The notes under the pieces were generated by a model that saw only the letters and a program-made list of their open reading frames with translations, was not told the DNA's origin and did no database searches. From Candidatus Latescibacterota bacterium (GTDB lineage: Bacteria; Latescibacterota; UBA2968): a DNA stretch of 64,000 nucleotides. This document shows, one piece after another, positions 20,699 through 46,220 of the stretch. The stretch lies in contig OZ251458.1 in NCBI GenBank assembly GCA_965242535.1, forward strand, positions 4,627,280 to 4,691,279, written 5' to 3'. Numbering within the stretch: position 1 is the first letter of the stretch; every line of letters begins with the position of its first letter. A program made the translations under genes and the position numbers.

Positions 20699-21205
20699 TC
20701 ATGCGCCTGTACTGCCGATCATCGCGTGTCGATTTAGATTGCGGGCAACACCATCCCATTGCGCGACGATAACCCGTCTCGGTTTTTTGCCCTTCTCCCA
20801 ATGATATTCCAGCACGTCATGCCTTTGATATTCTCGAAGCAGGGATACAAGCGTTGGGGAAAGCCCTGATGGAGAAATCAGAAACGAATAAAGCGGTTGA
20901 GCGATTCGGCTATAACCCAAAAGTTGCGAAAGATGCGCCAATGTTAATTTGGCGTTTTTGCACTCTACAAAAGCCAGAGAAGTATGATCCCAGTGGTGGA
21001 CAAATCCGACGACATCAACCCGAATATCCCAAGTAACCCACTCGCCAGGAAATTTGCCCTTGCCATAGGTTCTCAGAAACCGGGAAAGCGGCGTGTGTGA
21101 AAGATCGCGCACATCGATATTTGCATTTCGGTAACGGTTTGAAAGAAAATCCTTCAACCACCGACAGACATCGGGATACATTTCTCTTTCGGATTTATAC
21201 GCCAT
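20699..21205 (-). CDS. PD-(D/E)xK nuclease-like protein (third gene of the R-M-like cassette)
   Basis: WDIRVDVVGF...SLAFVECKNAKL fits a D...(E)xK core. It overlaps the upstream gene by 11 nt. AT-richer than the flanks by eye. Confidence 0.5.
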   Translation of the reverse strand: MAYKSEREMYPDVCRWLKDFLSNRYRNANIDVRDLSHTPLSRFLRTYGKGKFPGEWVTWDIRVDVVGFVHHWDHTSLAFVECKNAKLTLAHLSQLLGYSRIAQPLYSFLISPSGLSPTLVSLLREYQRHDVLEYHWEKGKKPRRVIVAQWDGVARNLNRHAMIGSTGA

Positions 21206-22154
21206 CTTCCTCTGCTTCCTCCATCAACGCCTCTTGATCGTCGGAGTCCCATAACGCCTGCATTCTTTTTGGCGTGCGCGGGCAACCCAACTTTTTACAA
21301 ATTTGCCAGTAAGCATTGAAATGGTTTCCTCTAAGCCGTTCGTCCAATTTTTCATCGCTTTCCCGGGAGTCCTTTGACTTCTTTCTTATCAATCTTTTCC
21401 TTCCAAGACAGGGATTGTAATTTTTTTTTGGAGAACGCACGGTGTCATGTTCAATACATTCCTTCAAAATGGCTTGTTTGTATGACAGTGAAAAACCGAT
21501 CTTCCCAAAAGGCACGGCAAAAATATTGATCTGATGCTCCCGAAAATCCCGACTCATATTCGGGTGTCCCCAGATGATTTGCGGAATAGGGACCGCTAAA
21601 TGTTCTTCCAGTAGCGTACAAAGCTGAACGGGCATTTCCCAATTGGTTTGGTAATTCAGTACATCGAGACGCACGCGATTAGTGCCATCTATATAGCGAT
21701 TTGTAGATCTGATATTTCCAGCGACATCGGCAAATCCCCTGATGTACTCTCGTTTCCAGTCCAGTGGGATATTTGGAGAAAAGAATATCTCTGGAACCAG
21801 AAAATGCTCGTACCCCAGGCGATTCTGTGTGTGCATCAAAATATTCCGCCACATCATTGTGTTTCCGGAAAAACGCAATACGAGATCGACGCTTTTACCT
21901 TTATCGATCATTTCGACATGAGCACCTGTGAGCTCCGAGACGCGATTTTCAATTGGTCGCAACAGCCCTTGTCGTATCGCAGCCTCCGCTTCAAAAGTCG
22001 TAGCTATCCCCTCCACCTCAAGAGATTGGTAAGGAAATTCAATGACAATTTGCCTTACGCCGCCGCTCTCCGATATTCTCCCTCTCGCCGTAATCAGCCC
22101 AAGCAGATAGGCAACATCAGCGTCGACATAGTCCATGACTTCAATTAAACTCAC
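21195..22154 (-). CDS. Hypothetical protein with two degenerate LAGLIDADG-like motifs
   Basis: AYLLGLITARGRI (aa ~15) and EYIRGFADVAGNI (aa ~147), each followed by beta-strand-like segments. The usual acidic residue is replaced (R, A). Basic C-terminal tail. The fold call is tentative. Confidence 0.45.
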   Translation of the reverse strand: MSLIEVMDYVDADVAYLLGLITARGRISESGGVRQIVIEFPYQSLEVEGIATTFEAEAAIRQGLLRPIENRVSELTGAHVEMIDKGKSVDLVLRFSGNTMMWRNILMHTQNRLGYEHFLVPEIFFSPNIPLDWKREYIRGFADVAGNIRSTNRYIDGTNRVRLDVLNYQTNWEMPVQLCTLLEEHLAVPIPQIIWGHPNMSRDFREHQINIFAVPFGKIGFSLSYKQAILKECIEHDTVRSPKKNYNPCLGRKRLIRKKSKDSRESDEKLDERLRGNHFNAYWQICKKLGCPRTPKRMQALWDSDDQEALMEEAEEDGV

Positions 22155-22172
22155 TGGATAGACCCCTCGTGT

Positions 22173-23285
22173 TTATGGTGTGATCGGTGCGAGGTAGGGG
22201 CGCAGATGCTCAAGAGCTTTGGGGCCAATACCCCTGACCTTTGCGATATCGTCGATACTGTTAAATGCCCCATTCTGTTCTCGATAAGCCACGATGCGCG
22301 ATGCAATTTGAGAGCCGATGCCGGGCAGGTGCTCGAGCTTTTTTCCCAATGCCTTGTTGATGTCGATCAATTGGGGTGCTTCTATTTTTTCTTCTGGGGG
22401 TGGGACGACCACAGCATTTTTATATTCTTCAAAATTTGGCGTGCCGTGCGGGCCTTGGATTGGTTTCTGAAAAATCAAGAGGAACTCGTGAATTTTGTTG
22501 ATGCGGAATACCGCCGGATAACCGAGTGGACGCAAGTTATTGTACTCCTGACTTCTGTCCCAGATAATCAAATCGTCAAAAATAAAGCCGATATCCTCCA
22601 TGAACAGAGAGACATCGCGGTGATAGGCATAGAATTGGCTCTTCTTTCGCAAATCCATGACAACCACACAACAGTAGCTTTTGGGCTTCATCGCAACATA
22701 GATTTGCTCAAAAATTTTGCGAAGTGAGAATAAGAACTCGTCATAATCGCGGATTTTCCCCAAATCTGACTCTGTTTCCCCATAATCGCGGCGCGCTTTG
22801 TAATCCGCTGTGCGCTTTTCCAAAAGAATGTCCCAATAAGGCGGCGAGGTAATCACCATATCCACGCTATTTGGAGACACGTATTTATCGAGCTTCCGAC
22901 TGTCGTCAATGTGGATCTTGACATCGGTTTGACCTTCAAAGGGAATCATCTGATGCACCCGATCCTCTGCAATTCGGGCAAATTCCGGCGAGATTTCTAT
23001 GCCAACAGCGTCTTTGCCCAACGCTTTGGCCGCGATCAACGTCGAGCCAATACCCACAAAAGGATCGAGTATTAAACGCGCATCTCGATTGGTAAAGCTT
23101 TCGATAAGCCGCAAGGCCAAGGCATGGGGAAACATGGCCGGATGCTTCAAGTCCCTTTCTTCCCGAGTTTTTTTGATGTCATTCCAAATCGAAATTGAAT
23201 ACCTCAACCACATCTTGCCATTGAGTTCGTTTGCGCGTTTCGATTCGGTTTTGCGTTTTTCCACGACCCGTTTTCTTTTTTTCAT
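22173..23285 (-). CDS. N4/N6 DNA methyltransferase (PF01555-like, permuted motif order) fused to a C-terminal ComEA-type helix-hairpin-helix domain
   Basis: HPAMFP..LILDPFVGIGSTLIAAKALGKDAVGIE (motif I region) precedes VDMVITSPPYW (motif IV). The C-terminus is LEHLPGIGSQIASRIVAYREQNGAFNSIDDIAKVRGIGPKALEHL. The ATG at 23285 is used, not the ORF start at 23441. Confidence 0.85.
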   Translation of the reverse strand: MKKRKRVVEKRKTESKRANELNGKMWLRYSISIWNDIKKTREERDLKHPAMFPHALALRLIESFTNRDARLILDPFVGIGSTLIAAKALGKDAVGIEISPEFARIAEDRVHQMIPFEGQTDVKIHIDDSRKLDKYVSPNSVDMVITSPPYWDILLEKRTADYKARRDYGETESDLGKIRDYDEFLFSLRKIFEQIYVAMKPKSYCCVVVMDLRKKSQFYAYHRDVSLFMEDIGFIFDDLIIWDRSQEYNNLRPLGYPAVFRINKIHEFLLIFQKPIQGPHGTPNFEEYKNAVVVPPPEEKIEAPQLIDINKALGKKLEHLPGIGSQIASRIVAYREQNGAFNSIDDIAKVRGIGPKALEHLRPYLAPITP

Positions 23286-23477
23286 GACCTCTTCTCCTGT
23301 TATGACCCATCCTTGGCCCTCCTCGCAACGAGGCGGGAAGGCGTTATTTTTTTTCCGCGAATAACGGGAGAGATGGGAGTCAGTGGTCAGTCCACCCCGT
23401 TCCATCAACCGTAGAGCCTGCCTCTTGAGTGCCCTAATCAAGGGGAGACAGGCCCACTAAATTAAGACATTTCAGGC

Positions 23478-31734: not shown

Positions 31735-31928
31735 TTTAGTTGGGACAAATGGAGACGTGCTGGGCACGCGCGGGCAGTCATTGCCCCCTACCAAATATTT
31801 CGCGCTATCGGCAGCGATTTGAACAAAATATTCATCCCAGAATCAAAAAGAGCCTATTTTTTAGGCTCTTTTTTTGGCATAATCATTGCATTATAGATTT
31901 CAAAAACGCCGATTCCAAACGAGCGATT

Positions 31929-33026
31929 ATGTGCGATTATGCCCTGCCATGGTTGGTGCTCTACGCGGTGCCGGGCCTGGGGCCTGCTGCGTACTGCGCC
32001 CTTCTCGAGCATTTTGAGACGCCCGAGAATATTCTTTCGCAGTCCCCTCGATCCCTGTGCGATGTCCCCGGCATTGGCCCGAGCACGGCGCAGTCTATTT
32101 GTTGCAACCGGGATTGGGCATGGGCGCGCGATCAAGTTGCGCGGGCACAGGGCATCGGCATTGAAATTTGCACGCTTTCCGACCCGCTCTATCCCCCCAT
32201 TCTAACCCAAATCTACGCGCCGCCACCCCTGCTTTTCGTCAAAGGCGATATCCGCTTGTGTCAGTCGCCAACCGTCAGCATCGTGGGGTCGCGTTCCTAC
32301 ACGGCGTATGGGCGAGAAACCGCGCATCGTTTGGGGGGCGATCTCGCCAGATCCGGGGTCACGGTGGTCAGCGGCATGGCCGTTGGCATCGACGCCCATG
32401 CACACCGAGGCGCGCTCGAGCACGGCGCGACCACAGCGGTGCTCGGCAGCAGTTTGGATTGCCCCTATCCCCCTGAAAACCGCGGCCTGTTTGACCAGAT
32501 TTGTGAACGCGGCGTCGCGTTATCCGAATTTCCACTGAGCACGCCCCCAGAGCCGCACAATTTTCCCCGGCGCAACCGCATCATCAGCGGCCTGAGCCTG
32601 GGCACGGTCGTCGTTGAGGCCGGCACGCGGAGCGGCGCGCTGATCACCGCCCAATTTGCCCTCGACCAAAGCCGCGATGTGTTTGCCGTTCCCGGGCCGA
32701 TTTATTCGGGCAAAAGCCGGGGCACAAATGGCTTGCTCCGCCAAGGCGCCATTCTCGTGCAGACGGCGCAAGACATTTTGAGCGAAATCAATCATCAAAT
32801 AACGGCCTCCGATCCCCCCGCCGAGTCGGGCACATCCCGCGAGGCATGTCCAAACCTATCCGATCGGGAACAGCGCGTATGGGAAATCCTCGCAGACGCC
32901 CCGGTACACATCGACGCGCTCGCACGGGCGGCGGGATTCTCCTCTGGCGAAACTCTCGACATTCTCTTGGGGCTTGAAATACAAGGACATGTCGAGCAAC
33001 TGCCGGGCATGCTTTTTAAGCGATAA
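31929..33026 (+). CDS. dprA: DNA processing protein DprA
   Basis: VVSGMAVGIDAHAHRGAL, NFPRRNRIISGLSLGTVVVEAGTRSGALITA, C-terminal winged-helix part. The in-frame ATG at 31929 is used. Confidence 0.9.
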   Translation: MCDYALPWLVLYAVPGLGPAAYCALLEHFETPENILSQSPRSLCDVPGIGPSTAQSICCNRDWAWARDQVARAQGIGIEICTLSDPLYPPILTQIYAPPPLLFVKGDIRLCQSPTVSIVGSRSYTAYGRETAHRLGGDLARSGVTVVSGMAVGIDAHAHRGALEHGATTAVLGSSLDCPYPPENRGLFDQICERGVALSEFPLSTPPEPHNFPRRNRIISGLSLGTVVVEAGTRSGALITAQFALDQSRDVFAVPGPIYSGKSRGTNGLLRQGAILVQTAQDILSEINHQITASDPPAESGTSREACPNLSDREQRVWEILADAPVHIDALARAAGFSSGETLDILLGLEIQGHVEQLPGMLFKR

Positions 33027-33309: not shown

Positions 33310-35103
33310 TCACACCCCCCGCGACATGGACAGCCCTTCTCGCTCGCGCCACAAAAACAACACATGGCGCGATTTCCGCAAATAGCGTTCGTAATGCTTG
33401 TTAAAATCCCGCCGCCTGCCATTGGGCGTTTTGCCATTGGGCCGCGCATTGCATTTGCCCCGCGCCTGCGTGATGCTCCGGCTGCCATTTTGCACGGCAA
33501 TCGTCATCACGCGGTGCGTTTCATGTTCCGGCGTCGTCACCTGCATCGACCAGATCGACGTCCGCCCATTTTTGCAGTTGTTCGCGTACGAGCCGACGCA
33601 GTGGTGCATCTTGCGGCCTTCGTCGGACAATTCCTTGGCCGTCACCAACTCGGTGATGGTCCAGCGATCCCTCGCGTTTCCATACCCATCCGTTTCCGTC
33701 CAATCTAGCGCGTTGAATCCCGAAGGTGCCCACACCTTTGCGGGCAGGCGATTCTGCCGCGCCAACTGCCGGTGCCACATCTCGACCTGCCGCAACAACT
33801 TGACCGCGCTGCGTCCCTTAATCGAAAAATTCGGTTGCTCCGGGGGCCGTTGCACGACTTCGCCGTCGATCGTTTCTTCCCGCGGCGCGTACTTCTGGTT
33901 GTGAATATAATCCACAATCGGCCCGACCTCGTCCGGATCGAGCATGGGATTGTTGACAAAAAAATGCACCACCTTGCACCAGAAAGACTCGCGATCAAAA
34001 GACGCCCCCAAGCGCGTGGCGTTCACCGCACGCACCAGGGGTTCACCCCCGCCGAGGCCGAGAATTTGCCCGCGCCGAAACGCCTCGTAAATCGCGTAAT
34101 CCGCAGGCGACTGCAAAAACAAATGGGCCATCTTCTTCGTCAGGGTCAACGGAATGTCGGCCTTGCGGATATTGCCCCCCGTGCCCACATGGACAAACCA
34201 GCTCTGTTGCTGTCGCGCCTCGGCTCCCTCGCTGAGAAACCACGCGATGTCCATAAACCCGGGCACATCGTATTTCGCCAACAGATGTCGCGCCAAGGCC
34301 GCAAATTGCTTGCGTGCGTTGTGCGACTCGGGCCGCCAATCGGTCGGATCGCGCAACCAATGCGCGTGCCAGCGCGCCAGCGCGCCCAAGGCTTCGATAT
34401 GCGTATTGCCATCTTGCGGCCCCAAGCGCGCCATCGCGGGTTTGACGTCGAAGAACCGCCCGTGTTTCTCCACATGCAACAATAAGTGCAACAGCGCGCG
34501 CCGCCCCTTGCGATCCTCGCCCATTTGATCAAACGCACGCTGAATTTTCTGCAAATGCGGGCGATTCAACGCCCCTTCCGACAGCGCGCCATCGCAGATC
34601 GCCCGAATCGCCTCTCGGGGCCGCCGCGTGTGATTTTTCATCTTCGCCAACACGGCGTCGCTCTTCAGGCGTTCGGCCAAATCGCGTTCTTTCCCGCGTT
34701 GCGCCGCGCTCTTATGCGTGCCCGCGCTCAACCCATGCGCGCTGCACCACGCCGCGTAATCCGCGACCGATTTCAACCCCAACTCTCGGATGTGTTGCGC
34801 GAGTTCCCGATCCGCCAATTCCGCATCTTTTGCCCGCTCGGCAATTATCCGCTCGCGCCGCCGCGCTTGCCACCCCTTGTTCAACGCCCGGTTCAACCCG
34901 TGATCGCGGCACCACGCCCGATATTGCGCCACCCCCGTCAACCCGAGCGATTGGATATGCGCGGTCAAATCCGCATTCGCCTTGCCCGCGGCTCCGCGAT
35001 GCCGCCTCTTTTTGCGCTTTGTCGCCATACGGCCTCCTGCACCTATCGCATCTGGTTCACACCCGTCGAGATGCACGTTTACCTTTTGCGAATATTCAGC
35101 CAA
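33310..35103 (-). CDS. PcfJ-like protein
   Basis: C-terminal block KMHHCVGSYANNCKNGRTSIWSMQV resembles the PcfJ family core. The N-terminus carries two ~45-aa repeats (HIQSLGLTGVAQYRAWCRDHGL and HIRELGLKSVADYAAWCSAHGL). Confidence 0.6.
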   Translation of the reverse strand: MAEYSQKVNVHLDGCEPDAIGAGGRMATKRKKRRHRGAAGKANADLTAHIQSLGLTGVAQYRAWCRDHGLNRALNKGWQARRRERIIAERAKDAELADRELAQHIRELGLKSVADYAAWCSAHGLSAGTHKSAAQRGKERDLAERLKSDAVLAKMKNHTRRPREAIRAICDGALSEGALNRPHLQKIQRAFDQMGEDRKGRRALLHLLLHVEKHGRFFDVKPAMARLGPQDGNTHIEALGALARWHAHWLRDPTDWRPESHNARKQFAALARHLLAKYDVPGFMDIAWFLSEGAEARQQQSWFVHVGTGGNIRKADIPLTLTKKMAHLFLQSPADYAIYEAFRRGQILGLGGGEPLVRAVNATRLGASFDRESFWCKVVHFFVNNPMLDPDEVGPIVDYIHNQKYAPREETIDGEVVQRPPEQPNFSIKGRSAVKLLRQVEMWHRQLARQNRLPAKVWAPSGFNALDWTETDGYGNARDRWTITELVTAKELSDEGRKMHHCVGSYANNCKNGRTSIWSMQVTTPEHETHRVMTIAVQNGSRSITQARGKCNARPNGKTPNGRRRDFNKHYERYLRKSRHVLFLWREREGLSMSRGV

Positions 35104-35493: not shown

Positions 35494-36402
35494 TCATTTG
35501 TTGGCGCGGAAAAATTTTGCCGCATCCAACAGAATGTCCGCAGATTTTTCGGAAAACCGAAAGTGCGCGGCGTCAGATGGTCGCCCATCGGCCCAAACGA
35601 TGTCTATTTTAATCCCCCGTCCCATCATCGCCAACTTAGCTACCGAATCGCACAATCTCGCACTGACGCCATATCGTACAGCCCTTGCAAAAAGTTCGAA
35701 CGCATCGCCCGTTCTGGTCTCGGCAATGGCCTCGTTGGCGTATTCAAGGGCGCGGGCCAAGGTGTCTGTGACGCGGCGAGAAGGCGCGTACAAATCGCCT
35801 CCAAAATTTTCTCGCACTCCCATGCCTACTGGCGATTTCTGATTTTTTGAGGATATCGGCGCGCCATTCCCCATAAGCACGGGCGCGTGCAAGGTGAGCG
35901 CGTAGCCCTCGCCATAGCCCGGCACCAAGCGCACCTCGTCGAGATATTGCGCGACGACCGCACTTGGTTTGCCGCGATAGACCGCCTGCGGGTTCTCGGT
36001 AGCACGCGCCGCCGCAACCAATAGGCTGTAAGCCTCGCGGACCAACCTCGCGCTTTGCGGCAATGAAAGCGATTTCCCTACCGCGCCATTGACCGCCCGC
36101 ATCCGTATCACATCGGACCCCGCGGCGGACAGGTCGTAGAACACGTCGAGTTGGGAGCGATTCTCGACCTCGGCGAGAACCTTGACCGCCTCGGCCATGC
36201 TCTCGACATGGTCGCCAAGGGTGTCCCGTGATGGAGCTAAAATCTCCCAATTTTGTCCGCCGCGTTCTTTGGTGTAGATCGTGGCGGGCCGGTTCCCCCA
36301 AGGGCCTTCGTCGTTCCACCCATGCGAAATCAGGTAGAAACGGAGGTTGCCAACTGACAGCGACGACAACGCATTCCGGTCGCGTATCTGAACTTTCATC
36401 AT
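35494..36402 (-). CDS. Hypothetical protein (302 aa, no recognised domain)
   Basis: Long ORF whose start overlaps the stop of the upstream DUF4365-like gene (ATGA at 36399-36402). Codon composition is backbone-like. Confidence 0.6.
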   Translation of the reverse strand: MMKVQIRDRNALSSLSVGNLRFYLISHGWNDEGPWGNRPATIYTKERGGQNWEILAPSRDTLGDHVESMAEAVKVLAEVENRSQLDVFYDLSAAGSDVIRMRAVNGAVGKSLSLPQSARLVREAYSLLVAAARATENPQAVYRGKPSAVVAQYLDEVRLVPGYGEGYALTLHAPVLMGNGAPISSKNQKSPVGMGVRENFGGDLYAPSRRVTDTLARALEYANEAIAETRTGDAFELFARAVRYGVSARLCDSVAKLAMMGRGIKIDIVWADGRPSDAAHFRFSEKSADILLDAAKFFRANK

Positions 36403-36878
36403 AGCCTCCCATCCTCGGCTTTGGTCATTAAGTCGTGGAGGTGATCTCGACTAAAAATGTTGGTCGCAGGTAGATCGATGCTAATGCTTGAAGTATTTGT
36501 TACAGCAGGCCGGCCTTCAAGAGAAATCCAATAGCCGCAACGGCGCAGACAAAGCTCATCTTCAGTTTGGCTTACCCATTGATCAGGATCCCGAGGCATC
36601 AAAACAACGATCAAAATGTGCGGAACTTTTGTGGGGATTCTCAGGTCATTGTAATTCTTGATTGGCAGGCGAAAGGGTAAGTTGTCGCCCCGTACAATAT
36701 CTTGCGACGTTGCCTTGGCTTGAAATTTTATCAGTGAACGCGGGCTAGAACCCGACATCAGGATCCCGTCCACGCTACCAATATCTATTTTTAGCGTGTT
36801 CATCTGATAACCGGCACTTGCTGCCACTGCTCCAATATATGCCAAAGAGAACAGCTCCTTATGTAAGTTCAGCGTCAT
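36399..36878 (-). CDS. DUF4365-like (restriction-endonuclease-fold) protein
   Basis: ELFSLAYIGAVAASAGY..DIGSVDGIL..IKFQAKAT resembles the DUF4365 N-terminal pattern (D.GID...vQvK). GAGAGG RBS. AT-richer by eye. Confidence 0.5.
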   Translation of the reverse strand: MTLNLHKELFSLAYIGAVAASAGYQMNTLKIDIGSVDGILMSGSSPRSLIKFQAKATSQDIVRGDNLPFRLPIKNYNDLRIPTKVPHILIVVLMPRDPDQWVSQTEDELCLRRCGYWISLEGRPAVTNTSSISIDLPATNIFSRDHLHDLMTKAEDGRL

Positions 36879-37027: not shown

Positions 37028-38944
37028 CTAATTTACCAACCCCATCTCTCGGAGGAATCGCGAAGGGTTTTTTTTCCAACCAAATACTTTGCGTGAGTAC
37101 GTCAATGTCAAACTTTCCTGAGTGCGTGTGATAGCGACAAAACAATTTCGCCTTTCCTCCTGCATTTCACGGCTATCGTCGCCCTTTTTGACCGCTATCC
37201 AACTCGGTAATTGATCCTCCACGAGGCCAACGAGATAAACATGACCAAATTCCAGGCCCTTCGAGGCATGAATCGTAAAACAAGGTACAGCGTCCTTCGG
37301 AGGATTTGGAGTTTTGGAACGGAGATCGAGCCCTTGTAACAGCGCGTTCAGCGTTACTTGCTCCCTGCCATATTCACCAACGACTTCGCCTATGAGGTCG
37401 TACCAGGTGTCCTTCTCTTCCCTATATTCCCCCATTTTGTCGTCAGATGTAGGCCGGGTTTCCGGCAATTCTTCAAACCATGTAAAGGCATCTTTGATAA
37501 AGGTCCAAAAATCCAATTTATCGGCGAGTTTCGCCACCGCCCCAGACAGAAGCCGTTCTGTTTGAGGCTCTACATCTTTCCGTTGCAACGCGGCTCGTTG
37601 CCAGGCACGGAGGTAGTCGCCTTCCTCGGCCGCCGCATCAGATATTACGTCTCCAACGATCAGATTGATGCCTTCAAGGTCCAAAAACGATTTGCAGATT
37701 CGGCGCAGTTGCTCGCGGTCCTGTCGGGCATTTGCCAACCGCAACATCGCGTGCAACCACGCCATCGGACTGCTGACAAACTCGTCCTTTCGCATTGCGA
37801 GATAGCCCGGCACGTTGCGCGTTTCAAGGGCTTCAACGATCCGTTCTAAAAGCCGGCGCGTGCGTGCGAGCACCACACACTTGCAACGCGACTCTTTGGA
37901 TCGAAGCGCGATATCGCGGGCAACCCAATCGGCTTCCTCATCAAAGCAAGCAAAGTCTTTCACCCGAATCGCGTTGCTTTTGCCGCTCTGCTCGTGAGGG
38001 GTTAAAGCTGTCTTGTTCGGATCGTGGCATAGATTGTGTTCAATGAGCGCGTTGGCAACATCGATCACTGCTGGCGGGCAACGATAATTTTCCGGTAGCT
38101 GTATAACAGACATACCAAAATCGCGCCGGAGCGATTTGAGCCGTTCCGGATCAGCCCCATTCCATTGGTAGATGATCTGGTCATCATCAGCAACGACGAA
38201 CAGATCCTTTGTCGCGGGGTTCACAATGCTATGCAAAATGTGATATTGTGCCGAGTTCGTGTCCTGAAATTCGTCGACACAAATGTATGGGTAGATGCGA
38301 CTCGTCAACTTTCTTATGGCGGGCTTCATTTGGAGCAGTCTAAAAGTTTCAGCGATGATTCCACCAAAATCCAGTTGATCGTTCTCGATCATCGAGTGTC
38401 GATAATTTCTGTAAATCGTCCCTATTACTTCGGCACCTTTCACATTGTATTTTTGCAAAAACGCAATAGCATCCTCCGCCGACACACTGTCGTCTAGGAG
38501 TCGTGCGACAAGAGGCAACAATTGTTCGCCTCTGTAAGTAACTTCCCCATGCTCCTTGCGCGTTCTTTCAATGGCCTCGTCAAGAACGGCTTCGCGATCT
38601 ATCACTTGGGGCAAAATCGCAAAGTCGGGGCGGAGGCCGATGTGGTGACCATGCTGACGCAGAAGGCCAACGCCGAACGAGTGAAATGTCGTTAGCAACG
38701 CACGCTCGCCTGCATTTGGAACGAGAGATTCAATGCGTTTCCGCATTTCTGTGGCGGCTTTGTTCGTAAAGGTGAGACCGAGGATTCTGAAGTGTTTCCC
38801 CGCGGTCTCTTCAATGATCCGAGCAATGCGATAGGTAAGGACCCGGGTTTTTCCCGATCCTGGCCCGGCCAGAACGAGAAGCGGCCCCTCGTTCCAATGA
38901 ACTGCCTGAGACTGATTCGCATTGAGCGACGACAGATCGACCAT
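37028..38944 (-). CDS. gajB: Gabija GajB (UvrD/Rep superfamily 1 helicase)
   Basis: AGPGSGKTRVL (Walker A), VDEFQDTN, TIHASKGLEFGHVYLVGL, FVAITRTQESL. Its ATG at 38944 overlaps the gajA stop (TGATG). Confidence 0.8.
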   Translation of the reverse strand: MVDLSSLNANQSQAVHWNEGPLLVLAGPGSGKTRVLTYRIARIIEETAGKHFRILGLTFTNKAATEMRKRIESLVPNAGERALLTTFHSFGVGLLRQHGHHIGLRPDFAILPQVIDREAVLDEAIERTRKEHGEVTYRGEQLLPLVARLLDDSVSAEDAIAFLQKYNVKGAEVIGTIYRNYRHSMIENDQLDFGGIIAETFRLLQMKPAIRKLTSRIYPYICVDEFQDTNSAQYHILHSIVNPATKDLFVVADDDQIIYQWNGADPERLKSLRRDFGMSVIQLPENYRCPPAVIDVANALIEHNLCHDPNKTALTPHEQSGKSNAIRVKDFACFDEEADWVARDIALRSKESRCKCVVLARTRRLLERIVEALETRNVPGYLAMRKDEFVSSPMAWLHAMLRLANARQDREQLRRICKSFLDLEGINLIVGDVISDAAAEEGDYLRAWQRAALQRKDVEPQTERLLSGAVAKLADKLDFWTFIKDAFTWFEELPETRPTSDDKMGEYREEKDTWYDLIGEVVGEYGREQVTLNALLQGLDLRSKTPNPPKDAVPCFTIHASKGLEFGHVYLVGLVEDQLPSWIAVKKGDDSREMQEERRNCFVAITRTQESLTLTYSRKVFGWKKNPSRFLREMGLVN

Positions 38945-40644
38945 CACCGCGCCTCCTTTGCAAGGTCCAATGCACATTCAATAATTTCAAGAAGTTGAGT
39001 TGGGACGTTCTCTTTTCCCCTGCTTTCCATTTGCTCTATGACCGCCATTGCCTTTCTCGGCTTCGAATCTCTAGTAATCTGCTTCCAATATTTGGGCGTT
39101 CCTCTCTCGGCGGTAACAGTATGCTTTTTTTGCGCGGACATATTTGCTTCATAAACGGAACCGTAGCCTTCCATACAGAGAAACACCTCCATATCACCAT
39201 GTGCCAATTTGTGTAGATGGCGACTTTCTGGTCGGCTACCAATTTGCTTTTGGGCACTGCTGATATATCCGTCTCCAGCGGAATCGCCATCTGCGACAAC
39301 GAGCCATTCGATGCCCAACTGGTCGGCGACCTTAATGAATTTCTCAACCCCAATCTGAGCAAATTCGATGGGAAAGACGCCTTCAGAGACGAGGTCGCAC
39401 TCACAAATCCGGGCACATTCCTCAAAAATTAGACAATCTGTCTCGCCTTCCACTAGCAACCAGCAACGTGCAAAAAGGAGATTGCCCCGCGTGGAACGGA
39501 CGTGATAGTTGAGTTTCTGGATCTCGTCGGGTGTAAGCGTGTTGTCTTCGATCTGATGAACGGTTATTTGACCGTCCTTTCGGCGGAGTCTCCGCAGCGA
39601 CTTGAGGGGAATACTCGCCAAGAGATCGCCGGAGTGCGTGGCGATGATTTTTTGTCCTTTTAGTCCCTGAAGCAGAGTAGCAACAGATCGGATCGCCGAA
39701 GGATGGAGATGGGCTTCCGGTTCTTCAAGTGCCAATATCGGCGTTGTGTACTCCGCATAACTGTCTGCTAGTTTGCTCTGGAGAAATGCGTCAAACAAAC
39801 AGATTACCGCCAAGCTTTGAGTGCCTTCGCCATGTCGTCCAATCGGCAAACGCGCACCGGTTATTGACGTGAGCATGACTTGAGTGCGCGACAAGATGTC
39901 AAAGACTTTGCCAGGGACCGCTTCAATACCTACTGGATCGTCTCCGTGGAGAGGAAGCATCTTGCCGGTGTTGTCGAGTTGCTCTTTGATCGCGTCAAAC
40001 GATTCATGAGCATCCAAAATTTTTTGATTCAGTATTGCCAATTCCCCTTCGAGTTCTCGTCTCAATTCGGGAGCGATATTCAGGGAGCGAACGAATGGTC
40101 CCCAAAACTGGGAACCAGGTCGAAATTCTTGGGCCGAATCGCGCAGTGCTGCCAGATAGAAAACGGGCGCGAGTTGTTGCAACGAGACGATGTGTCGCGG
40201 CTCCTTAGCATTTATGAGTTCGTCGCCAGCGAGGTTAAGAAAATCCCAAGTTGTGACAAAATCACCCTTCGCCTGGTCGTATTCGCTCTGCACGCGGAGT
40301 ATCGCGCTTTGCCGATCATCGTCGTCCATTTGAACGACATCAGATAGGCGTCCCAATACTTCGTCTGTCCACTCGCCTTCAACCTGCTCGGCGAAACGCA
40401 ACGTGATTTCTATGGCGTCACTGTCTGCCGGCTGGCTGTCCTGTCGTGGCAAATGATAATCGTATTCTGAAAATATGCTCCCTTTTCGAGTGAGCGAACG
40501 GCTGAGGCAAAATTGCAGTGCTTCCAGTATTGTCGATTTCCCGGTGTTATTTTCTCCTATCAGAACGGTGGTGTTGTCGAGTTTGAGACGCAACCGCTGG
40601 ATTCCCCTAAAATTCGCAATGTCGATTTGTTCTAAGAACATCAT
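38944..40644 (-). CDS. gajA: Gabija GajA (OLD-family ABC-type ATPase + TOPRIM nuclease)
   Basis: FLEQIDIANFRGI..VLIGENNTGKSTILEAL, ILALEEPEAHLHP, C-terminal TOPRIM WLLVEGETDCLIF and VVADGD. The ATG at 40644 follows GGAG. Confidence 0.8.
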   Translation of the reverse strand: MMFLEQIDIANFRGIQRLRLKLDNTTVLIGENNTGKSTILEALQFCLSRSLTRKGSIFSEYDYHLPRQDSQPADSDAIEITLRFAEQVEGEWTDEVLGRLSDVVQMDDDDRQSAILRVQSEYDQAKGDFVTTWDFLNLAGDELINAKEPRHIVSLQQLAPVFYLAALRDSAQEFRPGSQFWGPFVRSLNIAPELRRELEGELAILNQKILDAHESFDAIKEQLDNTGKMLPLHGDDPVGIEAVPGKVFDILSRTQVMLTSITGARLPIGRHGEGTQSLAVICLFDAFLQSKLADSYAEYTTPILALEEPEAHLHPSAIRSVATLLQGLKGQKIIATHSGDLLASIPLKSLRRLRRKDGQITVHQIEDNTLTPDEIQKLNYHVRSTRGNLLFARCWLLVEGETDCLIFEECARICECDLVSEGVFPIEFAQIGVEKFIKVADQLGIEWLVVADGDSAGDGYISSAQKQIGSRPESRHLHKLAHGDMEVFLCMEGYGSVYEANMSAQKKHTVTAERGTPKYWKQITRDSKPRKAMAVIEQMESRGKENVPTQLLEIIECALDLAKEAR

Positions 40645-40745
40645 GTCCGGTCTCCTATATTCTAACCCTCCCTGGCACCAGCGCGTGATCGCAGGGCGGC
40701 GGCGGATATGATTTAACATTAACCGATATGTCCCGTGAAAGCAAG

Positions 40746-41750
40746 TCAGTGGATGGTTTTTCTCGTATAGTGTTTATCAAATTCCTGTAAAATGTTGGGA
40801 TGGTAGAGAGTTTTCTTTTGACTATTGGGGTTATTGGGATTAAGAAGCCGAGTTTTCGCAAATCTCGGATCATCGTGGAGAGGTTTGCGGATAGCATGGT
40901 AGTCTCTATTTACTTTGAAATTTTGGTAAAGCTTTCTGCACTTCTCTGTGAGAGTGTTGTAATCCCAAGGATATTTTCCCCAAATTTCTTCTTCTGTAAA
41001 GCGAACCGCTGGTGCTGAAGGGTCTGTCGTAATTTGTGTTAGCAAGGCATCCTTGGCGTTTGACTTGGTGAATTGAATGTCGATACTCACAGTCACAGAA
41101 TAGAGAGATTCAGGATCCGATTCAGCGTTGTCGATTTTCTCTAAAAATGATAGGAAATTTTTTTCTACTGCATTGAGCAAAACCCCATCCACATTAGAAG
41201 GCAAATTCATAAAAGTCAACGGCATCAGGTGCAGATCAAATTCCGAAAGTTCCCGTCCAAACCATTCGCGAGTAGCGGTGGCAAAGTTTTTGACGCAGGC
41301 TGCACCGACCTCATACAAGTATTTCTGAAATGCTGAAGATGAAAAATAATGCGTGGCGCAGTTGCGAAACTCCCGCAGAATATCAAGATTGTGTCCTACA
41401 GACGGGTCAAGGTTTTTATTTTTGACCATCTGTTTGGCCAGATAATCTATACCGTGAGTAAAAGGGACGTTGGATCGAGTTCTTTTGACAAAGCGTTTTT
41501 TGCTTTTTGTCCCATCAGCTTTTTGACGCTTTTCATAAACATATAGACTACTTGCCTTGTTCTCGTGAATAGCAAGCCATCTGGCTTTTAAGAGGAGTTC
41601 CCATCCGTTGATCGCGAGAATTGCGAATGTCTCGTCTCGATAAGAAAACCCTGGCTTATTGTAAATTTCGATGGCGGATACCATAGCCGATATCGCCCGA
41701 TCCAATAACTCGTTTGACCGTGATTTCATACGTTTCTCCTGTCCTTTCAA
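40746..41750 (-). CDS. Hypothetical protein, DUF3644-like N-terminus (tentative)
   Basis: LLDRAISAMVSAIEIYNKPGFSYRDETFAILAINGWELLLKA resembles the A.E.YNKP...R.E.F....AWE.LLKA pattern I associate with DUF3644. Clearly AT-rich gene. Same strand, 101 bp upstream of gajA. Confidence 0.5.
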   Translation of the reverse strand: MKGQEKRMKSRSNELLDRAISAMVSAIEIYNKPGFSYRDETFAILAINGWELLLKARWLAIHENKASSLYVYEKRQKADGTKSKKRFVKRTRSNVPFTHGIDYLAKQMVKNKNLDPSVGHNLDILREFRNCATHYFSSSAFQKYLYEVGAACVKNFATATREWFGRELSEFDLHLMPLTFMNLPSNVDGVLLNAVEKNFLSFLEKIDNAESDPESLYSVTVSIDIQFTKSNAKDALLTQITTDPSAPAVRFTEEEIWGKYPWDYNTLTEKCRKLYQNFKVNRDYHAIRKPLHDDPRFAKTRLLNPNNPNSQKKTLYHPNILQEFDKHYTRKTIH

Positions 41751-41769: not shown

Positions 41770-42460
41770 TTATGTTCGGACTTCGCCACTGATGAGCTTC
41801 GGCAACAGCGTATCGCGCAGGGCGGCGAAGCCCGTTGCAGCGGCGAACACCGTCATGGGCAGATGGGTAGAATGCAAATCCAAGACCGCCTCTCCGCAGG
41901 CGTCGGTCTCCGCGCTTTTCCAAGTGTTGTTGGGAAAGAGCACCAAGAGATCGACATTGCCCAGCGGCTCGCCGGCGCATCGCACAGTGATGACCGCACG
42001 GGCGGGACTCTGCTCCTGCAATGCCGCGGGAATGATGAGGCAAACTTCCGACTCGTCAATCAATCGGTATTCGGGCGGCCTGCCGCAGAGTTCCCGGGTT
42101 TCGCGCAGGATGATCGAAACGCCATCTCCGCGCCGCTCCATGAAATACCTTCTTTCCTCAGAGCCTCGCACGCCCCCCACCGGCATCCTCCCTAGCACAG
42201 AGGTCAATATTGGGTTGCGGGTGGCCTGCCGCGTCGCCATGCTCTCGACCGTCAAGTTGTTTGGCAACGCGCCGGGCGTCGGTCACGCCGCAAAGCAACA
42301 CGCCGCCATGTCCGTTGGCAAAAGCCGCCAGTTCATTCGCGAGGCTGTCGCGCTTTGGGCTGTGCGGATGGCCGCCGCGAAACGCAATTTGTTTGAACTC
42401 CCACCGGCTGTCCTCACCCAAGCGCAACTGGCGGACGATATCCTCAGTGCCGTAATTCAT
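41770..42460 (-). pseudogene. Degraded AlbA_2 / HATPase_c_4-type putative regulator (frameshift plus internal deletion)
   Basis: ORF 42158-42460 encodes the AlbA_2-like N-terminus (EDSRWEFKQ..LANELAAFANGHGGVLLCGVTD). Overlapping ORF 41770-42267, in another frame, carries only the end of the ATPase-like domain (TRNPILTSVLGR..RRGDGVSIILRE..RPPEYRL). Total length is about half that of intact homologues. Confidence 0.55.
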
Positions 42461-42579: not shown

Positions 42580-43692
42580 TCAAAACGCCTCGTGTCCCTC
42601 TACGAGATTGACGAGTTCAGAGAACGCCAGAATATTCGATCTGCGCCCGCCTCCACGGGCGATGACCTTTAGAACATCGCCTCTGCACAAGGCGTCCAGA
42701 ACCCGGCGCGCCGTCTTTGCCGGAATGCCCGCTTCGGCAACGAAGAACGAGCTCGGAAAGATCGGACGCTCAAAGATCCAGTCCAACGCTTGGATGCTGT
42801 ATCGAGAGCGGGTCAGGTCCGACACGCGGAGCTTCATCCCGTCATACAAGTCGAGAATGCCCTTGGCCTTTGCCAAGTCGTCTTCGGCTTGCGCCCGAAT
42901 CGCTTCGAGGAAGAACCGGCACCAGCCGGTCCAGTCGTCATCGCGCGAGACCGCGAGCAGCCCTTCGTAATAGGCGTCGCGGTGGGCCTCGAAATAGGCA
43001 CTGATGTAAAACATGGGGCGCCCGATGATTTTGTGTTGCCACAAGAACAAGGGCACGAACAGGCGCCCCAAACGACCATTGCCGTCTAAGAACGGGTGCA
43101 GGGCCTCGAACTCGGCGTGCAGGATGGCGAGTTGCACCAGGCGATCGAGCGCGTCTCGGTGGATATAGCGCTCCCACGCGCTCATGGCATCTGGGAGTTT
43201 ATCGGCACTGATGGGTACGAATTTGGCCTCTTCAATGGTGCATCCGGGGGCCCCTATCCAGTTGGGAACGCGCCGGTATTCGCCGGGGGCTTTGCCCTGG
43301 CCGCGCACGTCGGAAAGCAACACGCGATGGGCGTCTCGGATGACCCGCTGGGAAAGTGGCAATTCCCGTAGCATTTCTTCTGCCCTTCGCATGGCGGCGC
43401 GGTAGTTGAGCACTTCGCGGATGTCGCCGCGGCGTTCGGGCGAGGCCGTCTCTCGTCCCGCCTCAAATTCCAATACCTCGCCCAGGGTGGCTTGCGTGCC
43501 TTCAATGCGCGAAGACAGCACCGCTTCTCGAGTCGTGAGCGGCGAGAGCAAAACGCCTGGGTTCGGTATGGCGGAAAGCATCCCGTCGTAACGCGCCACG
43601 GCCCCGGCCGCCGGGCCGATCAGTGGAATCAACGCCTCCCAGTCGAGGTTCTCGGGGGGGAACTGCCCCAGGTGGTAATGTATCGTTGCCAT
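42580..43692 (-). CDS. Fic family protein (AMPylase-type) with N-terminal inhibitory helix motif
   Basis: HPFLDGNGRLGR (HxFx[D/E]GNGRxxR), SSRIEG ([S/T]xxxE[G/N]), C-terminal winged-helix-like tail. The ATG at 43692 gives MATIHYHLGQF. The upstream part of the 522-aa ORF is a gene remnant. Confidence 0.85.
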   Translation of the reverse strand: MATIHYHLGQFPPENLDWEALIPLIGPAAGAVARYDGMLSAIPNPGVLLSPLTTREAVLSSRIEGTQATLGEVLEFEAGRETASPERRGDIREVLNYRAAMRRAEEMLRELPLSQRVIRDAHRVLLSDVRGQGKAPGEYRRVPNWIGAPGCTIEEAKFVPISADKLPDAMSAWERYIHRDALDRLVQLAILHAEFEALHPFLDGNGRLGRLFVPLFLWQHKIIGRPMFYISAYFEAHRDAYYEGLLAVSRDDDWTGWCRFFLEAIRAQAEDDLAKAKGILDLYDGMKLRVSDLTRSRYSIQALDWIFERPIFPSSFFVAEAGIPAKTARRVLDALCRGDVLKVIARGGGRRSNILAFSELVNLVEGHEAF

Positions 43693-43699
43693 CAATCCG

Positions 43700-44044
43700 C
43701 TCCAAATCCCAATGTGTTCAGATTTTTTTGGATGAGGCCATCCAGGCGCGTGCTTTCCGCTTGCTGATCGCGCCATTGCGCGGCGCGGCGATTCGCCTTG
43801 GTCGCGAACGGCTCGCCTCGGTCGGCACTCAAAAAATGTTTTGTGCGCGGTACTCGTCCGGGTCTTCGGGATCGGCCAAGGCATCGCGCTCGAGTTGCAC
43901 GCGCGCCTCCTCGAAAGCGTCGGAGATGTACTTGAAAAAGATGAGTCCGAGGATGACGTGCTTGTACTCGGCGGCGTCCATGCTGCCCCGCAGCGCGTCT
44001 GCCATTTGCCACAGTTCGGGTTTGCCAACCACATGATCTGACAC
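43700..44044 (-). pseudogene. Remnant of a type I R-M methylase gene (hsdM)
   Basis: The 71-aa [39 protein letters not shown] is the HsdM N-terminal domain and then stops. A second frame ends ..LDGLIQKNLNTLGFG, like an HsdM C-terminus. The whole catalytic core is missing. Confidence 0.65.
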
Positions 44045-44262
44045 GGGAAAACCTCCAAATGGTGTTGCAAATCGGGTGCTTTCAAAGTTCGGGTTTCATC
44101 ATAATCGGGATTTTCCATTTCTTCAAGGACTTTTTGATTTCCGCCCAACTCGCCGTGCGCGTTTAGGCGTTGCGGCGCCTATGGGTTTGGCTTATCGTTT
44201 GGCTGACGCCTAGCGCGATGGGCAGATGTTTTGGACGCGATACAACTCGTGGAGGTGACAGG

Positions 44263-45660
44263 ATGAAAATACGCATTAAAAACCTCGGAATTTTAAGGCA
44301 GGCGGAATTTTCGCTCGGGGATTTGACCATCATCTGCGGCGAGAATAACACGGGCAAAACGTATATGGCTTACGCGCTGTATGATTTCTTGCAGTCTTGG
44401 CGCAAACTTATTCGCGTTCCGGTAAGCGATGCCCAGATCCAACATTTGATTAAAGATGGCGTCCTCAATATCGGATTGGCACAATACGTCAAAAAAGCCG
44501 ATCAGATGCTCGCAGAGGCGTGTGGGAAGTACAAGGATAAACTGGACGATGTTTTTGCAGCGCCCGAAGGCACGTTTGATAACAGTGAATTTCAAATTCA
44601 GGTAAAAATTCCCGATGGCATCGCAAAGAGAGAAATAACCGGAAACACGCCGTTCATTACTTTCATAAAGAGGGAAGGGAGTGAAGAACTGGTGGTTACT
44701 TTTGAAGAAAAAAAAGAAGAAAAAAATGGGAATTTCTTTCTTCAGGGCATTCAAAAAGCCGCATATATAGAAACGTTCATGGGGTTGATTATCAGCAGTG
44801 CTATTTTTCGCGATTCCTTTCCCAGGCCCTTTATTGCTTCAGCCGAGCGCACTGGCGCGGCAATTTTTCGCAAGGAATTGAATTTTGCGCGCAACCGCCT
44901 GCTTGACGAAATAGCCCAAGCAGACAAAAAAATCGATCCGAGGCCGTTGCTATCAAAAGAGTACCAAAATTACCCTTCGCCAATAGAAGCCAATGTGGAA
45001 TTTACGCGGCAACTCGAAGAGGTGGCAAAAAGACAAAGCTTTATCACCAAAGAACACCCGGAAGTGTTGGAAGACTTTGCCGATATTATGGGTGGGAGTT
45101 ACAGCCTGCCCCAAAATGACCAACTTTACTATCAACCCAAAGGGACGCGGGTTAGGTTGACGATGGTCGAGAGTTCCAGTGCGGTGCGTTCATTGCTGGA
45201 CCTGGGGTTTTATCTGCGCCATGTCGCTCAAAAGGGGGACCTGTTGATGGTAGATGAGCCGGAGTTAAACCTTCATCCGGCAAACCAACGCCGCATTGCA
45301 AAGCTGTTTGCGCGTCTGGTGAATGTGGGCGTTAAAGTCTTTATCACCACCCACAGCGATTACATCGTCAAAGAACTGAATACCCTCATCATGCTCAATG
45401 GCGACAAGCCACATCTAAAAAAAATTGCCGAAGAAAATGGCTATCGAAACGCCGAGTTGCTCAGAGTTGATCAAGTCAAAGTATATACGGCTCGAGACGC
45501 ATTGATGCCCTTAGAAGATGGGCAAAAGAGACGCAGGAGAGGCCACACACTCGTGCCGGCTGACATCGACCCCGAACTCGGCATTGCGGCCCCTAGCTTT
45601 GACGAGACGATTAATGACATGAACCGGATTCAGGAAGACATTATTTGGGGAGCGGAGTAA
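44263..45660 (+). CDS. ABC/SMC-type AAA ATPase (AAA_15/AAA_21-like), unclassified
   Basis: IKNLGILRQAEFSLGDLTIICGENNTGKTY (Walker A), LLMVDEPELNLHP (Walker B), ITTHSD (H-loop). ATG at 44263 after GGAGG. AT-richer by eye. Confidence 0.8.
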   Translation: MKIRIKNLGILRQAEFSLGDLTIICGENNTGKTYMAYALYDFLQSWRKLIRVPVSDAQIQHLIKDGVLNIGLAQYVKKADQMLAEACGKYKDKLDDVFAAPEGTFDNSEFQIQVKIPDGIAKREITGNTPFITFIKREGSEELVVTFEEKKEEKNGNFFLQGIQKAAYIETFMGLIISSAIFRDSFPRPFIASAERTGAAIFRKELNFARNRLLDEIAQADKKIDPRPLLSKEYQNYPSPIEANVEFTRQLEEVAKRQSFITKEHPEVLEDFADIMGGSYSLPQNDQLYYQPKGTRVRLTMVESSSAVRSLLDLGFYLRHVAQKGDLLMVDEPELNLHPANQRRIAKLFARLVNVGVKVFITTHSDYIVKELNTLIMLNGDKPHLKKIAEENGYRNAELLRVDQVKVYTARDALMPLEDGQKRRRRGHTLVPADIDPELGIAAPSFDETINDMNRIQEDIIWGAE

Positions 45661-45665
45661 GCGGC

Positions 45666-46220
45666 ATGGAAGATATCAAAATATTGCGAGAAATGCTCAT
45701 CCCCGATGTTCAAATTCCATTGCAACCAAGACCGGGTAAGCCCTCTGTCGAACTAACAGATGATCAGGGCAAAACGAGTGCAAGGATAAAAGGGTTGCCC
45801 CATGACTCTGTCGTGATCAGAGCGGAGGCTTTTAAAGGCCCCCTAACCATCTTTCGAGGTTCAAAAAAGGAACGCAGACGGGCTGATTTTGTGATCGTAT
45901 CCAATGAGGACACAAAAAAGTGGATTGTCTGCATCGAAACCCAAGCGGGGAATCGCAAAAATGCGGCGGACATTAAAGCGCAATTAAAAGGCGCGCAATG
46001 CTTTGTGAGTTACTGCAAATGTATCGGAAGGTCATTTTGGGAATCGAAAAATTTTCTCGATAGCTACCAATACCGGTTCGTGTGCATGGCAAATATCAAC
46101 ATGGACAAGAGACCGACGCGTCCCAATAGGCACCCCTTGCACGACAGCACCGAGAAATTTCTGAAAATTTTTGGCGACGCGCACCATTTCAATAAATTGA
46201 TTCGGAGGGGATCCCGATAG
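45666..46220 (+). CDS. Small hypothetical protein, possible PD-(D/E)xK-like core
   Basis: Starts 6 nt after the ATPase stop. RRADFVIVSNEDTKKWIVCIETQAGNRK fits a D...ExQ/K nuclease-like motif (the ExQ variant is known from BglII). Tentative. Confidence 0.5.
   Translation: MEDIKILREMLIPDVQIPLQPRPGKPSVELTDDQGKTSARIKGLPHDSVVIRAEAFKGPLTIFRGSKKERRRADFVIVSNEDTKKWIVCIETQAGNRKNAADIKAQLKGAQCFVSYCKCIGRSFWESKNFLDSYQYRFVCMANINMDKRPTRPNRHPLHDSTEKFLKIFGDAHHFNKLIRRGSR

Follow-up and report, generated by a model that had tools for sequence, protein, structure and literature searches.

A probable two-gene anti-phage system of the PDC-M47 family in a Latescibacterota genome, with glutamine in place of the expected catalytic lysine of its predicted nuclease

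We analysed a 64,000-nt stretch of a Candidatus Latescibacterota genome (assembly GCA_965242535.1, contig OZ251458.1, positions 4,627,280-4,691,279 of the forward strand), hereafter called the window, and all positions given below are window positions. It contains two adjacent genes, named A and B here, which code for an OLD-type ATP-binding cassette (ABC) ATPase and a small protein with a predicted PD-(D/E)xK fold. Judged by its profile matches, the pair is a member of the family PDC-M47 and sister of PD-T4-4. It is likely that it works as a two-gene anti-phage system of this PD-T4-4/PDC-M47 family, a branch of the group of OLD-type ABC ATPases with restriction endonuclease (REase)-fold nucleases that includes WonAB, and that the ATP-driven protein A would license protein B. 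The ATPase motifs are intact, gene B has homologues among the nucleases of these systems, the coupled operon is conserved across phyla, both genes are under purifying selection, and the pair is located in a defence island.

The classification was based on the hidden Markov models (HMMs) of PADLOC-DB v2.0.0. Gene A matches PDC-M47A at E 1.2e-201 (668.6 bits), its residues 1-464 covering positions 1-460 of the 461 in the profile. Gene B matches PDC-M47B model PDLC04668 at E 2.3e-58, its residues 1-179 covering positions 1-183 of the 186, and four more PDC-M47B models match gene B at 3e-33 to 4e-9. An earlier reading of this DNA, made from the letters and open reading frames (ORFs) without database searches (the sequence-only reading), had called the pair unclassified. 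This label has to be dropped, since both proteins match a named system over their full length, and the pair also shares with PDC-M47 the order A then B, the same strand and the adjacency of the genes. Its description of a defence-type pair consisting of an ABC-type ATPase and a small PD-(D/E)xK-like nuclease is supported. PDC stands for 'phage defence candidate', and the 145 PDC systems entered PADLOC as predictions, made by guilt-by-embedding from genes embedded in Type I restriction-modification (RM), BREX, DISARM and Hma loci (Payne et al., bioRxiv 10.1101/2024.01.29.577857). NCBIfam gave no match above cut-offs for the pair. The PD-T4-4_A HMMs PDLC04033 (E 1.9e-156) and PDLC04032 (E 8.7e-79) also match gene A, both below its PDC-M47A score, and the PD-T4-4_B HMMs match gene B partially and below membership, at E 0.023-0.033 compared to 1e-18 to 6e-108 for true PD-T4-4_B proteins. 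The pairs used for comparison were PD-T4-4 from ColE1-type plasmids of E. coli and Klebsiella, from an E. albertii plasmid and from the P2-like Vibrio phage 1.202.O, and PDC-M47 from a cyanobacterial plasmid. The true PD-T4-4 pairs cross-match PDC-M47A at 1e-66 to 1e-92 and PDC-M47B at 1e-4 to 6e-6, and the ATPases of PD-T4-4 and PDC-M47 each match the model of the other family strongly.

As listed in Table 1, both genes lie on the plus strand. The two ORFs of the sequence-only reading are present as described, with a spacer of 5 nt between them. The strong Shine-Dalgarno sequence GGAGGTG indicates that gene A starts at its ATG, and not at the TTG at 44170 of a longer ORF. The location of the purine-rich GGGGAGCGGAG, just ahead of the gene A stop codon, suggests that translation of the two genes is coupled. 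A scan for promoters and terminators returned sites no more numerous than in shuffled sequence, and no identical B protein was present in the assembly index. Among 160 related loci, A and B are adjacent in 156. In the window clade, A stands directly upstream of B with a gap of 8-15 nt in 78 of 80 loci, the exceptions being one contig edge and one 2-kb insertion, and in the cyanobacterial/proteobacterial branch A stands directly upstream of B in 78 of 80 loci, using a 200-nt criterion. The distribution is patchy: in a search for related loci with an 18-sequence alignment, one peptide pattern confirmed only 219 stretches in 185,579 species genomes. The ratio of nonsynonymous to synonymous substitution rates (dN/dS), obtained in seven comparisons, was 0.15-0.31 (0.15-0.25 for gene A and 0.15-0.31 for gene B), indicating purifying selection on both genes.

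Conservation of the gene A motifs was scored in 152 full-length sequences, i.e. the window protein and 151 orthologues. The set of OLD-type ABC motifs is complete, and K32, E195-R196, S304-306, D331-E332, P333-E334, H338-P339 and H364 are each conserved in at least 97% of these sequences. The Walker A (GENNTGKT), Walker B (LLMVDEPELNLHP) and H-loop (TTHSD, residues 362-366) picked out by the sequence-only reading are all present and near-invariant. The ~290-aa insert that it described was correct as a distance (293 aa from Walker A to Walker B), but not as a single insert, since this region contains E195-R196 and the SSS signature (304-306), and thus has the usual layout of an ABC protein, with inserts that are enlarged. 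R196 probably corresponds to R182 of WonA, judging by the motif context ('IPASR' in WonA homologues). Pfam recognises AAA_15 (E 5e-27) and AAA_21 in gene A and no TOPRIM domain. Partial PADLOC matches were found to AriA (6e-29), Old (3e-15), GajA (6e-13), PtuA (2e-11, C-terminal lobe only) and AbiLi (3e-10). Compared with PDB chain sequences, gene A gave only generic ABC C-lobe matches, and it resembles UvrA, RecF, RecN and SMC-type ABC proteins weakly (E 6e-6 or weaker) and in the generic C-terminal lobe only.

Gene B belongs to a sizeable family, with 373 full-length close homologues and 669 clusters at 50% identity (E 1e-3 or better), all of ~180-200 aa. Pfam detects no domain in it, PD-(D/E)xK models included, and TOPRIM, HNH and RloB are absent, in line with the earlier remark that the partner lacks TOPRIM/DUF4435, HNH and RloB. 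An AlphaFold2 model built from a 137-sequence alignment (predicted local distance difference test score 93.9, predicted template-modelling score 0.90) shows strands 48-52, 75-81, 84-94 and 135-143 and a long helix 100-124, with D74 before strand 75-81 and E91 and Q93 on strand 84-94. In a Foldseek search against PDB, the top matches of this model were all REase-fold nucleases, but weak ones: FokI (E 0.023), Mus81, BamHI, DdmD, AddB and PaqCI, with template-modelling scores of ~0.22. Against viral models (BFVD), the matches were UL24, ERCC4, alk-exo and Mrr-like proteins, again weak; both sets are taken as no more than a weak but consistent trend. Residues were counted in 137 representatives of the wide family and in the 51 sequences of the window clade (Table 1). 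The ADFVIVS..WIVCIETQ core that had been singled out before is there, and its D74 and E91 are essentially invariant across the family.

Profile-profile alignment sets this core in register with two characterised systems. Using hhalign, the wide PDC-M47B profile aligned with PD-T4-4_B over 137 columns (97.8%, E 1.3e-12), with D74 opposite D91, E91 opposite D108 and position 93 opposite K110, and Q106 aligned with the conserved Gln of the 'QLENS' motif of PD-T4-4_B. A shallow alignment of the window clade had shifted ExQ by one residue relative to DxK, and it was the deeper profile that gave the register. The alignment with WonB was confined to the core (63 columns, window residues 26-98; 84.7%, E 6.7e-6), with D..ExK in register and position 93 opposite the Lys of the invariant E-L-K. 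WonB K71 is presumably this ELK lysine, judging by the numbering (K72 in Geobacillus). The earlier description of an ExQ variant was to the point: in the family, in PD-T4-4_B and in WonB, the canonical catalytic Lys stands opposite position 93. Taken by its motifs and profiles, gene B is best described as a divergent protein of the PD-(D/E)xK fold, with homologues in the nuclease subunits of PD-T4-4 and WonAB.

Most PDC-M47 members, mainly cyanobacterial, have the canonical D..ExK, whereas the window clade has D..ExQ plus K98. The states of both positions were tabulated per locus for 80 loci of the window clade and 80 of the cyanobacterial/proteobacterial branch. Q93 together with K98 was found in 59 of the 80 clade loci (4 Latescibacterota, 6 Caldilineaceae, and 49 Poribacteria or other), and K93 together with K98 in 15 loci from Poribacteria. 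In the cyanobacterial/proteobacterial branch K93 is universal (80/80), K98 occurs in 7/80, and K93 stands without K98 in 73/80. All sequences without K93 carry K98, and a one-residue insertion at position 97 is confined to the window clade. The Q93 sequences form a single clade, thus the change from K93 to Q93 plus K98 was probably one event and does not provide independent replication. In the window clade, the invariant K98 would most likely assume the role of the Lys at position 93. We tentatively propose, though with less than even confidence, that this clade documents the relocation of a catalytic lysine, from an ancestral E-x-K93 without K98, through a K93 plus K98 intermediate, to a derived state with Q93, K98 and the loop insertion, across three unrelated phyla.

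PD-T4-4 of E. coli ECOR58 was found by functional selection for T4 resistance (Vassallo et al. 2022; PMC9519451), and has been described in three papers as an ABC/P-loop ATPase with a PD-(D/E)xK nuclease. A 2026 preprint (bioRxiv 10.64898/2026.07.10.737580) groups it with Septu as having an HNH effector, which conflicts with those papers and with the D..DxK seen in PD-T4-4_B sequences. The window pair resembles PD-T4-4 in having an ATPase of ~460-480 aa, clearly of an orthologous type, followed by a PD-(D/E)xK protein of ~200 aa, and PD-T4-4 is experimentally protective. The active sites differ, with D91...D108-x-K110 and 'QLENS' in PD-T4-4_B and D74...E91-T-Q93..K and 'QLKGA' in gene B, which therefore departs from the canonical DxK site. 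Two side observations concern the carriers of PD-T4-4. The pair is essentially the sole cargo of tiny non-mobilisable ColE1-type plasmids of 4.2-4.8 kb, as in E. coli pSCU-105-5 (L082, 4.8 kb) and Klebsiella pKPN6 (L083, 4.3 kb), and in the temperate P2-like Vibrio phage 1.202.O (L085) it lies between repressor and integrase, a layout like that of the WonAB-bearing WASA-1 prophage locus.

WonAB of V. cholerae shares with the window pair an OLD-type ABC ATPase with Arg at the Q-loop position and a small divergent REase-fold nuclease as partner. It is a much more distant branch: WonA-type ATPases match PDC-M47A only at ~1e-13, WonB-type proteins match PDC-M29B weakly and not PDC-M47B, gene order varies among WonAB loci, and WonB retains the catalytic Lys. 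WonB is also shorter (143-171 aa in nine aligned homologues), and as it aligned in the core only, it offers no counterpart to the N-terminal segment of gene B or to its C-terminal half. The WonA and WonB family sequences were taken from Supplementary Table 4 of PMC12137116. Defence by WonAB requires both genes, and depends on K34, R182, E300 and H333 of WonA, with R182A abolishing defence, and on K71 of WonB; it proceeds by lysis-independent abortive infection, in which translation arrests and chromosomal DNA stays intact (PMC12137116). The same study found that Lon degrades WonB. Because the DNA is intact and translation stops, the target of WonAB is probably RNA of the translation apparatus. 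Adams et al. cite a 'novel REase' class of Krishnan et al. 2020. PARIS, Septu, Gabija, OLD and AbiL are alike in that an AAA_15/AAA_21 OLD-type ABC ATPase senses or regulates beside, or fused to, a nuclease. Their effectors are of the TOPRIM/DUF4435 type (AriB, GajA, OLD, AbiLii) or HNH type (PtuB), whereas gene B has neither and its fold matches are REase-like. Specifically, PADLOC gave no AriB match for gene B and the AriA match of gene A is partial (6e-29 versus 1e-201 for PDC-M47A), neither PADLOC nor Pfam found HNH or PtuB in gene B, and gene A has no fused TOPRIM, unlike the true GajA in the window, which has OLD-like_TOPRIM.

By analogy, WonAB appears to be the best available mechanistic model for the pair. 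Following WonAB and PD-T4-4, protein A would dimerise around two ATP molecules, and its C-terminal extension would hold B. The ATP cycle of A would be altered by a phage-derived cue, and this would license B to cut nucleic acid, after which the infected cell would stop growing and the infection would be aborted.

As the sequence-only reading had also noticed, the pair is AT-rich and is located at the edge of an island. Its G+C content is 0.469, compared with a window value of 0.572 and a right-flank value of 0.591, and the genes on its right are housekeeping genes. The island genes at 33.3-44.0 kb run on the minus strand, the pair on the plus strand. The right neighbour is a Gfo/Idh/MocA oxidoreductase, and a 563-aa ORF on the same side has, on inspection, some resemblance to acetolactate synthase. 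The left neighbours are SoFic, an hsdM stub, an AlbA_2 fragment, PDC-S19, Gabija, PDC-M02 and a PcfJ-like gene (Table 1). From the pair through ~49 kb, the window is collinear with two Latescibacterota chromosomes assembled from metagenomes, at 89-90% identity. The related loci L002 and L166 have an intact 513-aa HsdM; L166 has a Fic_N fragment and, divergent from the pair, a 498-aa product with HsdR C-terminal domains, L002 has no Fic, and L001 has only a 172-aa Fic_N fragment. Together these look like one Type I RM/Fic cluster in which different genes decay in different genomes. In L002, a single intact 582-aa gene (562-2310) corresponds to the Schlafen AlbA_2 fragment of the window (100-aa ORF, 42158-42460, minus strand) together with an adjoining out-of-frame ORF, with 91% nucleotide identity over 41816-42278, and the region 41770-42460 probably represents a pseudogene with a frameshift. 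The 41770-42267 ORF has a C-terminal tail, 'LRDTLLPKLISGEVRT', that looks like the end of HsdS. The idea that Type I RM systems are the general setting of the pair, as in the origin of the PDC set, was rejected for the clade, HsdM being the nearest upstream ORF in only 1 of 74 loci, although the closest relatives of the window do carry an intact hsdM beside the pair.

Further to the left, a DprA-like protein (31740-33026, plus strand) matches ShosA of Shosta at E 1.5e-57 and is either a housekeeping DprA or a Shosta-type defence gene; it is followed by the gene for the 597-aa PcfJ-like protein (33310-35103, minus strand). In a second low-GC patch (20699-23441, minus strand, G+C 0.46-0.47), two ORFs for which Pfam has no match (20699-21205 and 21195-22154) accompany a gene for an N6_N4 DNA methylase with an HHH domain (22173-23441). 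This patch may represent a restriction-modification module of its own, with the housekeeping genes purD, an oxidoreductase and a sulfatase between it and the main island. In the Poribacteria loci (L005-L080), 19 of 74 have a DUF255/thioredoxin-like gene upstream of the pair and 13 have a gene with a PIN domain there, and 37 of 75 have a PhyH dioxygenase downstream. Some Poribacteria have a second full or partial ATPase copy by the pair, as in L013 (8506-10315), L062 (3091-4394) and L071 (3039-4481), and in L062 the extra ATPase sequence lies between A and B, which are 2 kb apart.

Table 1. Features of the gene pair and of the neighbouring defence genes (window positions).
Feature	Position	Strand	Description
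Gene A	44263-45660	+	ATG 44263, stop TAA 45658-45660; 465-aa OLD-type ABC ATPase; PADLOC PDC-M47A; Pfam AAA_15 and AAA_21
Shine-Dalgarno GGAGGTG of gene A	44251-44257	+	5 nt ahead of ATG 44263 (read from sequence)
Walker A GENNTGKT	44338-44361	+	Residues 26-33; G26, N28, K32 152/152; T33 151/152
E195-R196, Q-loop equivalent	44845-44850	+	Arg replaces Gln (OLD-family deviation); both 152/152
ABC signature region ESSSAVRS	45169-45192	+	Residues 303-310; S304 151/152, S305 152/152, S306 150/152
Walker B and D-loop LLMVDEPELNLHP	45241-45279	+	Residues 327-339; D331 150/152, E332 148/152; P333, E334, H338, P339 152/152
H-loop ITTHSD	45343-45360	+	Residues 361-366; T362, T363 152/152; H364 147/152
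Shine-Dalgarno-like purine-rich GGGGAGCGGAG	45647-45657	+	3' end of gene A, stops just short of the A stop codon, ahead of the B ATG
Gene B	45666-46220	+	ATG 45666, stop TAG 46218-46220; 184 aa; divergent PD-(D/E)xK-fold protein, predicted effector; PADLOC PDC-M47B
D74 codon	45885-45887	+	'PD' aspartate; 136/137 wide family, 51/51 clade; aligns with PD-T4-4_B D91 and WonB D55
E91-T92-Q93	45936-45944	+	(D/E)xK motif with Gln for catalytic Lys; E91 137/137; position 93 K in 128/137, Q in 46/51 of clade
K98 codon	45957-45959	+	Loop after catalytic strand, candidate relocated catalytic Lys; 51/51 clade, 23/137 wide family
Q106-L107-K108	45981-45989	+	Conserved QLKGA motif on helix 100-124; Q106 137/137, L107 127/137, G109 134/137
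PDC-M02, PADLOC candidate pair	35494-36878	-	DUF4365 protein 36399-36878 (M02A, E 6.5e-49); 302-aa partner without Pfam domain 35494-36402 (M02B, E 2e-66)
Gabija, complete	37028-40719	-	GajA 38944-40719 (DUF2813, AAA_15, OLD-like TOPRIM; E 5e-228); GajB 37028-38977 (UvrD helicase; E 3e-265); 34-nt overlap
PDC-S19, single-gene PADLOC candidate	40746-41750	-	DUF3644, E 1.9e-122; between Gabija and RM remnants
SoFic	42580-43692	-	PADLOC E 2.5e-109, full-length
hsdM stub	43829-44044	-	71-aa N-terminal remnant; ~1.19 kb deleted relative to L002

Several results weigh against a defence function of the pair as outlined above. With two models of B searched by Foldseek against PDB and BFVD, no match reached E 1e-3 (best E 0.02), and the B profile had no match among PDB chain sequences at E up to 10; with no significant structure match, the nuclease assignment rests on the motif pattern and on profile-profile homology. 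Complex formation, trigger, substrate and outcome are modelled on WonAB and PD-T4-4. In the literature searched, the name PDC-M47 appears in no paper, and there is no published phage test of any member. In most Poribacteria the pair stands alone between housekeeping genes and outside defence islands, which suggests that a defence-type module has been inherited vertically over a long time without being part of such islands. Finally, the catalytic Lys whose mutation kills WonB is Gln in gene B. This last point raises the possibility that in the window clade B is no longer a nuclease, but was inactivated by the Lys-to-Gln change and now serves as a nucleic-acid-binding or regulatory partner, or that the system is decaying. 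Q93 does replace a Lys found in 128 of the 137 family representatives, and the neighbouring hsdM, the AlbA_2 gene and, in relatives, Fic are visibly decaying. However, the clade keeps D74, E91 and Q106 invariant and has K98 in all 51 sequences, and the dN/dS of 0.15-0.31 indicates that the Q93 variant is not a decaying gene. The existence of K93 plus K98 intermediates is as expected of relocation and not of loss. Moreover, PD-(D/E)xK enzymes can be active even when this Lys has been moved or exchanged, BamHI, with Glu at this position, being an example. We therefore regard loss of nuclease activity as unlikely.

The same ATPase-nuclease arrangement could also be a toxin-antitoxin or addiction module that stabilises the DNA carrying it, with B as toxic nuclease and A as ATP-dependent antitoxin or stabiliser. 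The Pfam label of AAA_21 is 'putative AbiEii toxin, Type IV TA system', a pair that is the sole cargo of small ColE1-type plasmids would fit such a role, and overproduced WonB is toxic. This toxicity requires active WonA, however, which excludes simple sequestration (PMC12137116). In addition, the Poribacteria pair occupies a fixed chromosomal site among housekeeping genes with no mobile element to stabilise, and both PD-T4-4 and WonAB protect against phage, so that an addiction module is improbable. The fixed site by housekeeping genes in Poribacteria and Latescibacterota, the purifying selection, and the similarity of gene A to UvrA, RecF, RecN and SMC-type proteins would rather suit a housekeeping DNA repair or recombination module, acting in the manner of SbcCD or RecN/RecF and vertically kept in sponge-symbiont lineages. 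We consider this very unlikely, since the pair is patchily distributed and far AT-richer than its genome, has relatives on plasmids and phages, and is part of a defence island in the window, while its closest characterised relatives are defence systems and the similarity to repair proteins does not extend beyond the generic lobe.

The anti-phage reading removes an apparent unknown, as the pair becomes recognisable within the defence group of ABC ATPases and REase-fold nucleases formed by PD-T4-4, PDC-M47 and WonAB, and the alignments provide direct profile evidence for one catalytic core common to the PDC-M47B, PD-T4-4_B and WonB nucleases. The pair opens no long-standing question, and what is modestly new is limited to the clade-specific change of the nuclease catalytic Lys in a family that was already catalogued. 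As a conserved gene pair under purifying selection, present in at least 160 genomes, PDC-M47 is a reasonable target for validation. The clade offers a natural variant in which the counterpart of the essential WonB Lys has been exchanged and has apparently moved, a ready-made probe (Q93K, K98A) of how the nuclease works. Poribacteria, Latescibacterota and Caldilineaceae are typical sponge symbionts, and if this lifestyle holds for the genomes concerned, the distribution of Q93 plus K98 would imply horizontal spread inside that community. If the lysine was indeed relocated, the altered site might shift metal use or substrate choice, for example RNA versus DNA, relative to PD-T4-4 and WonAB.

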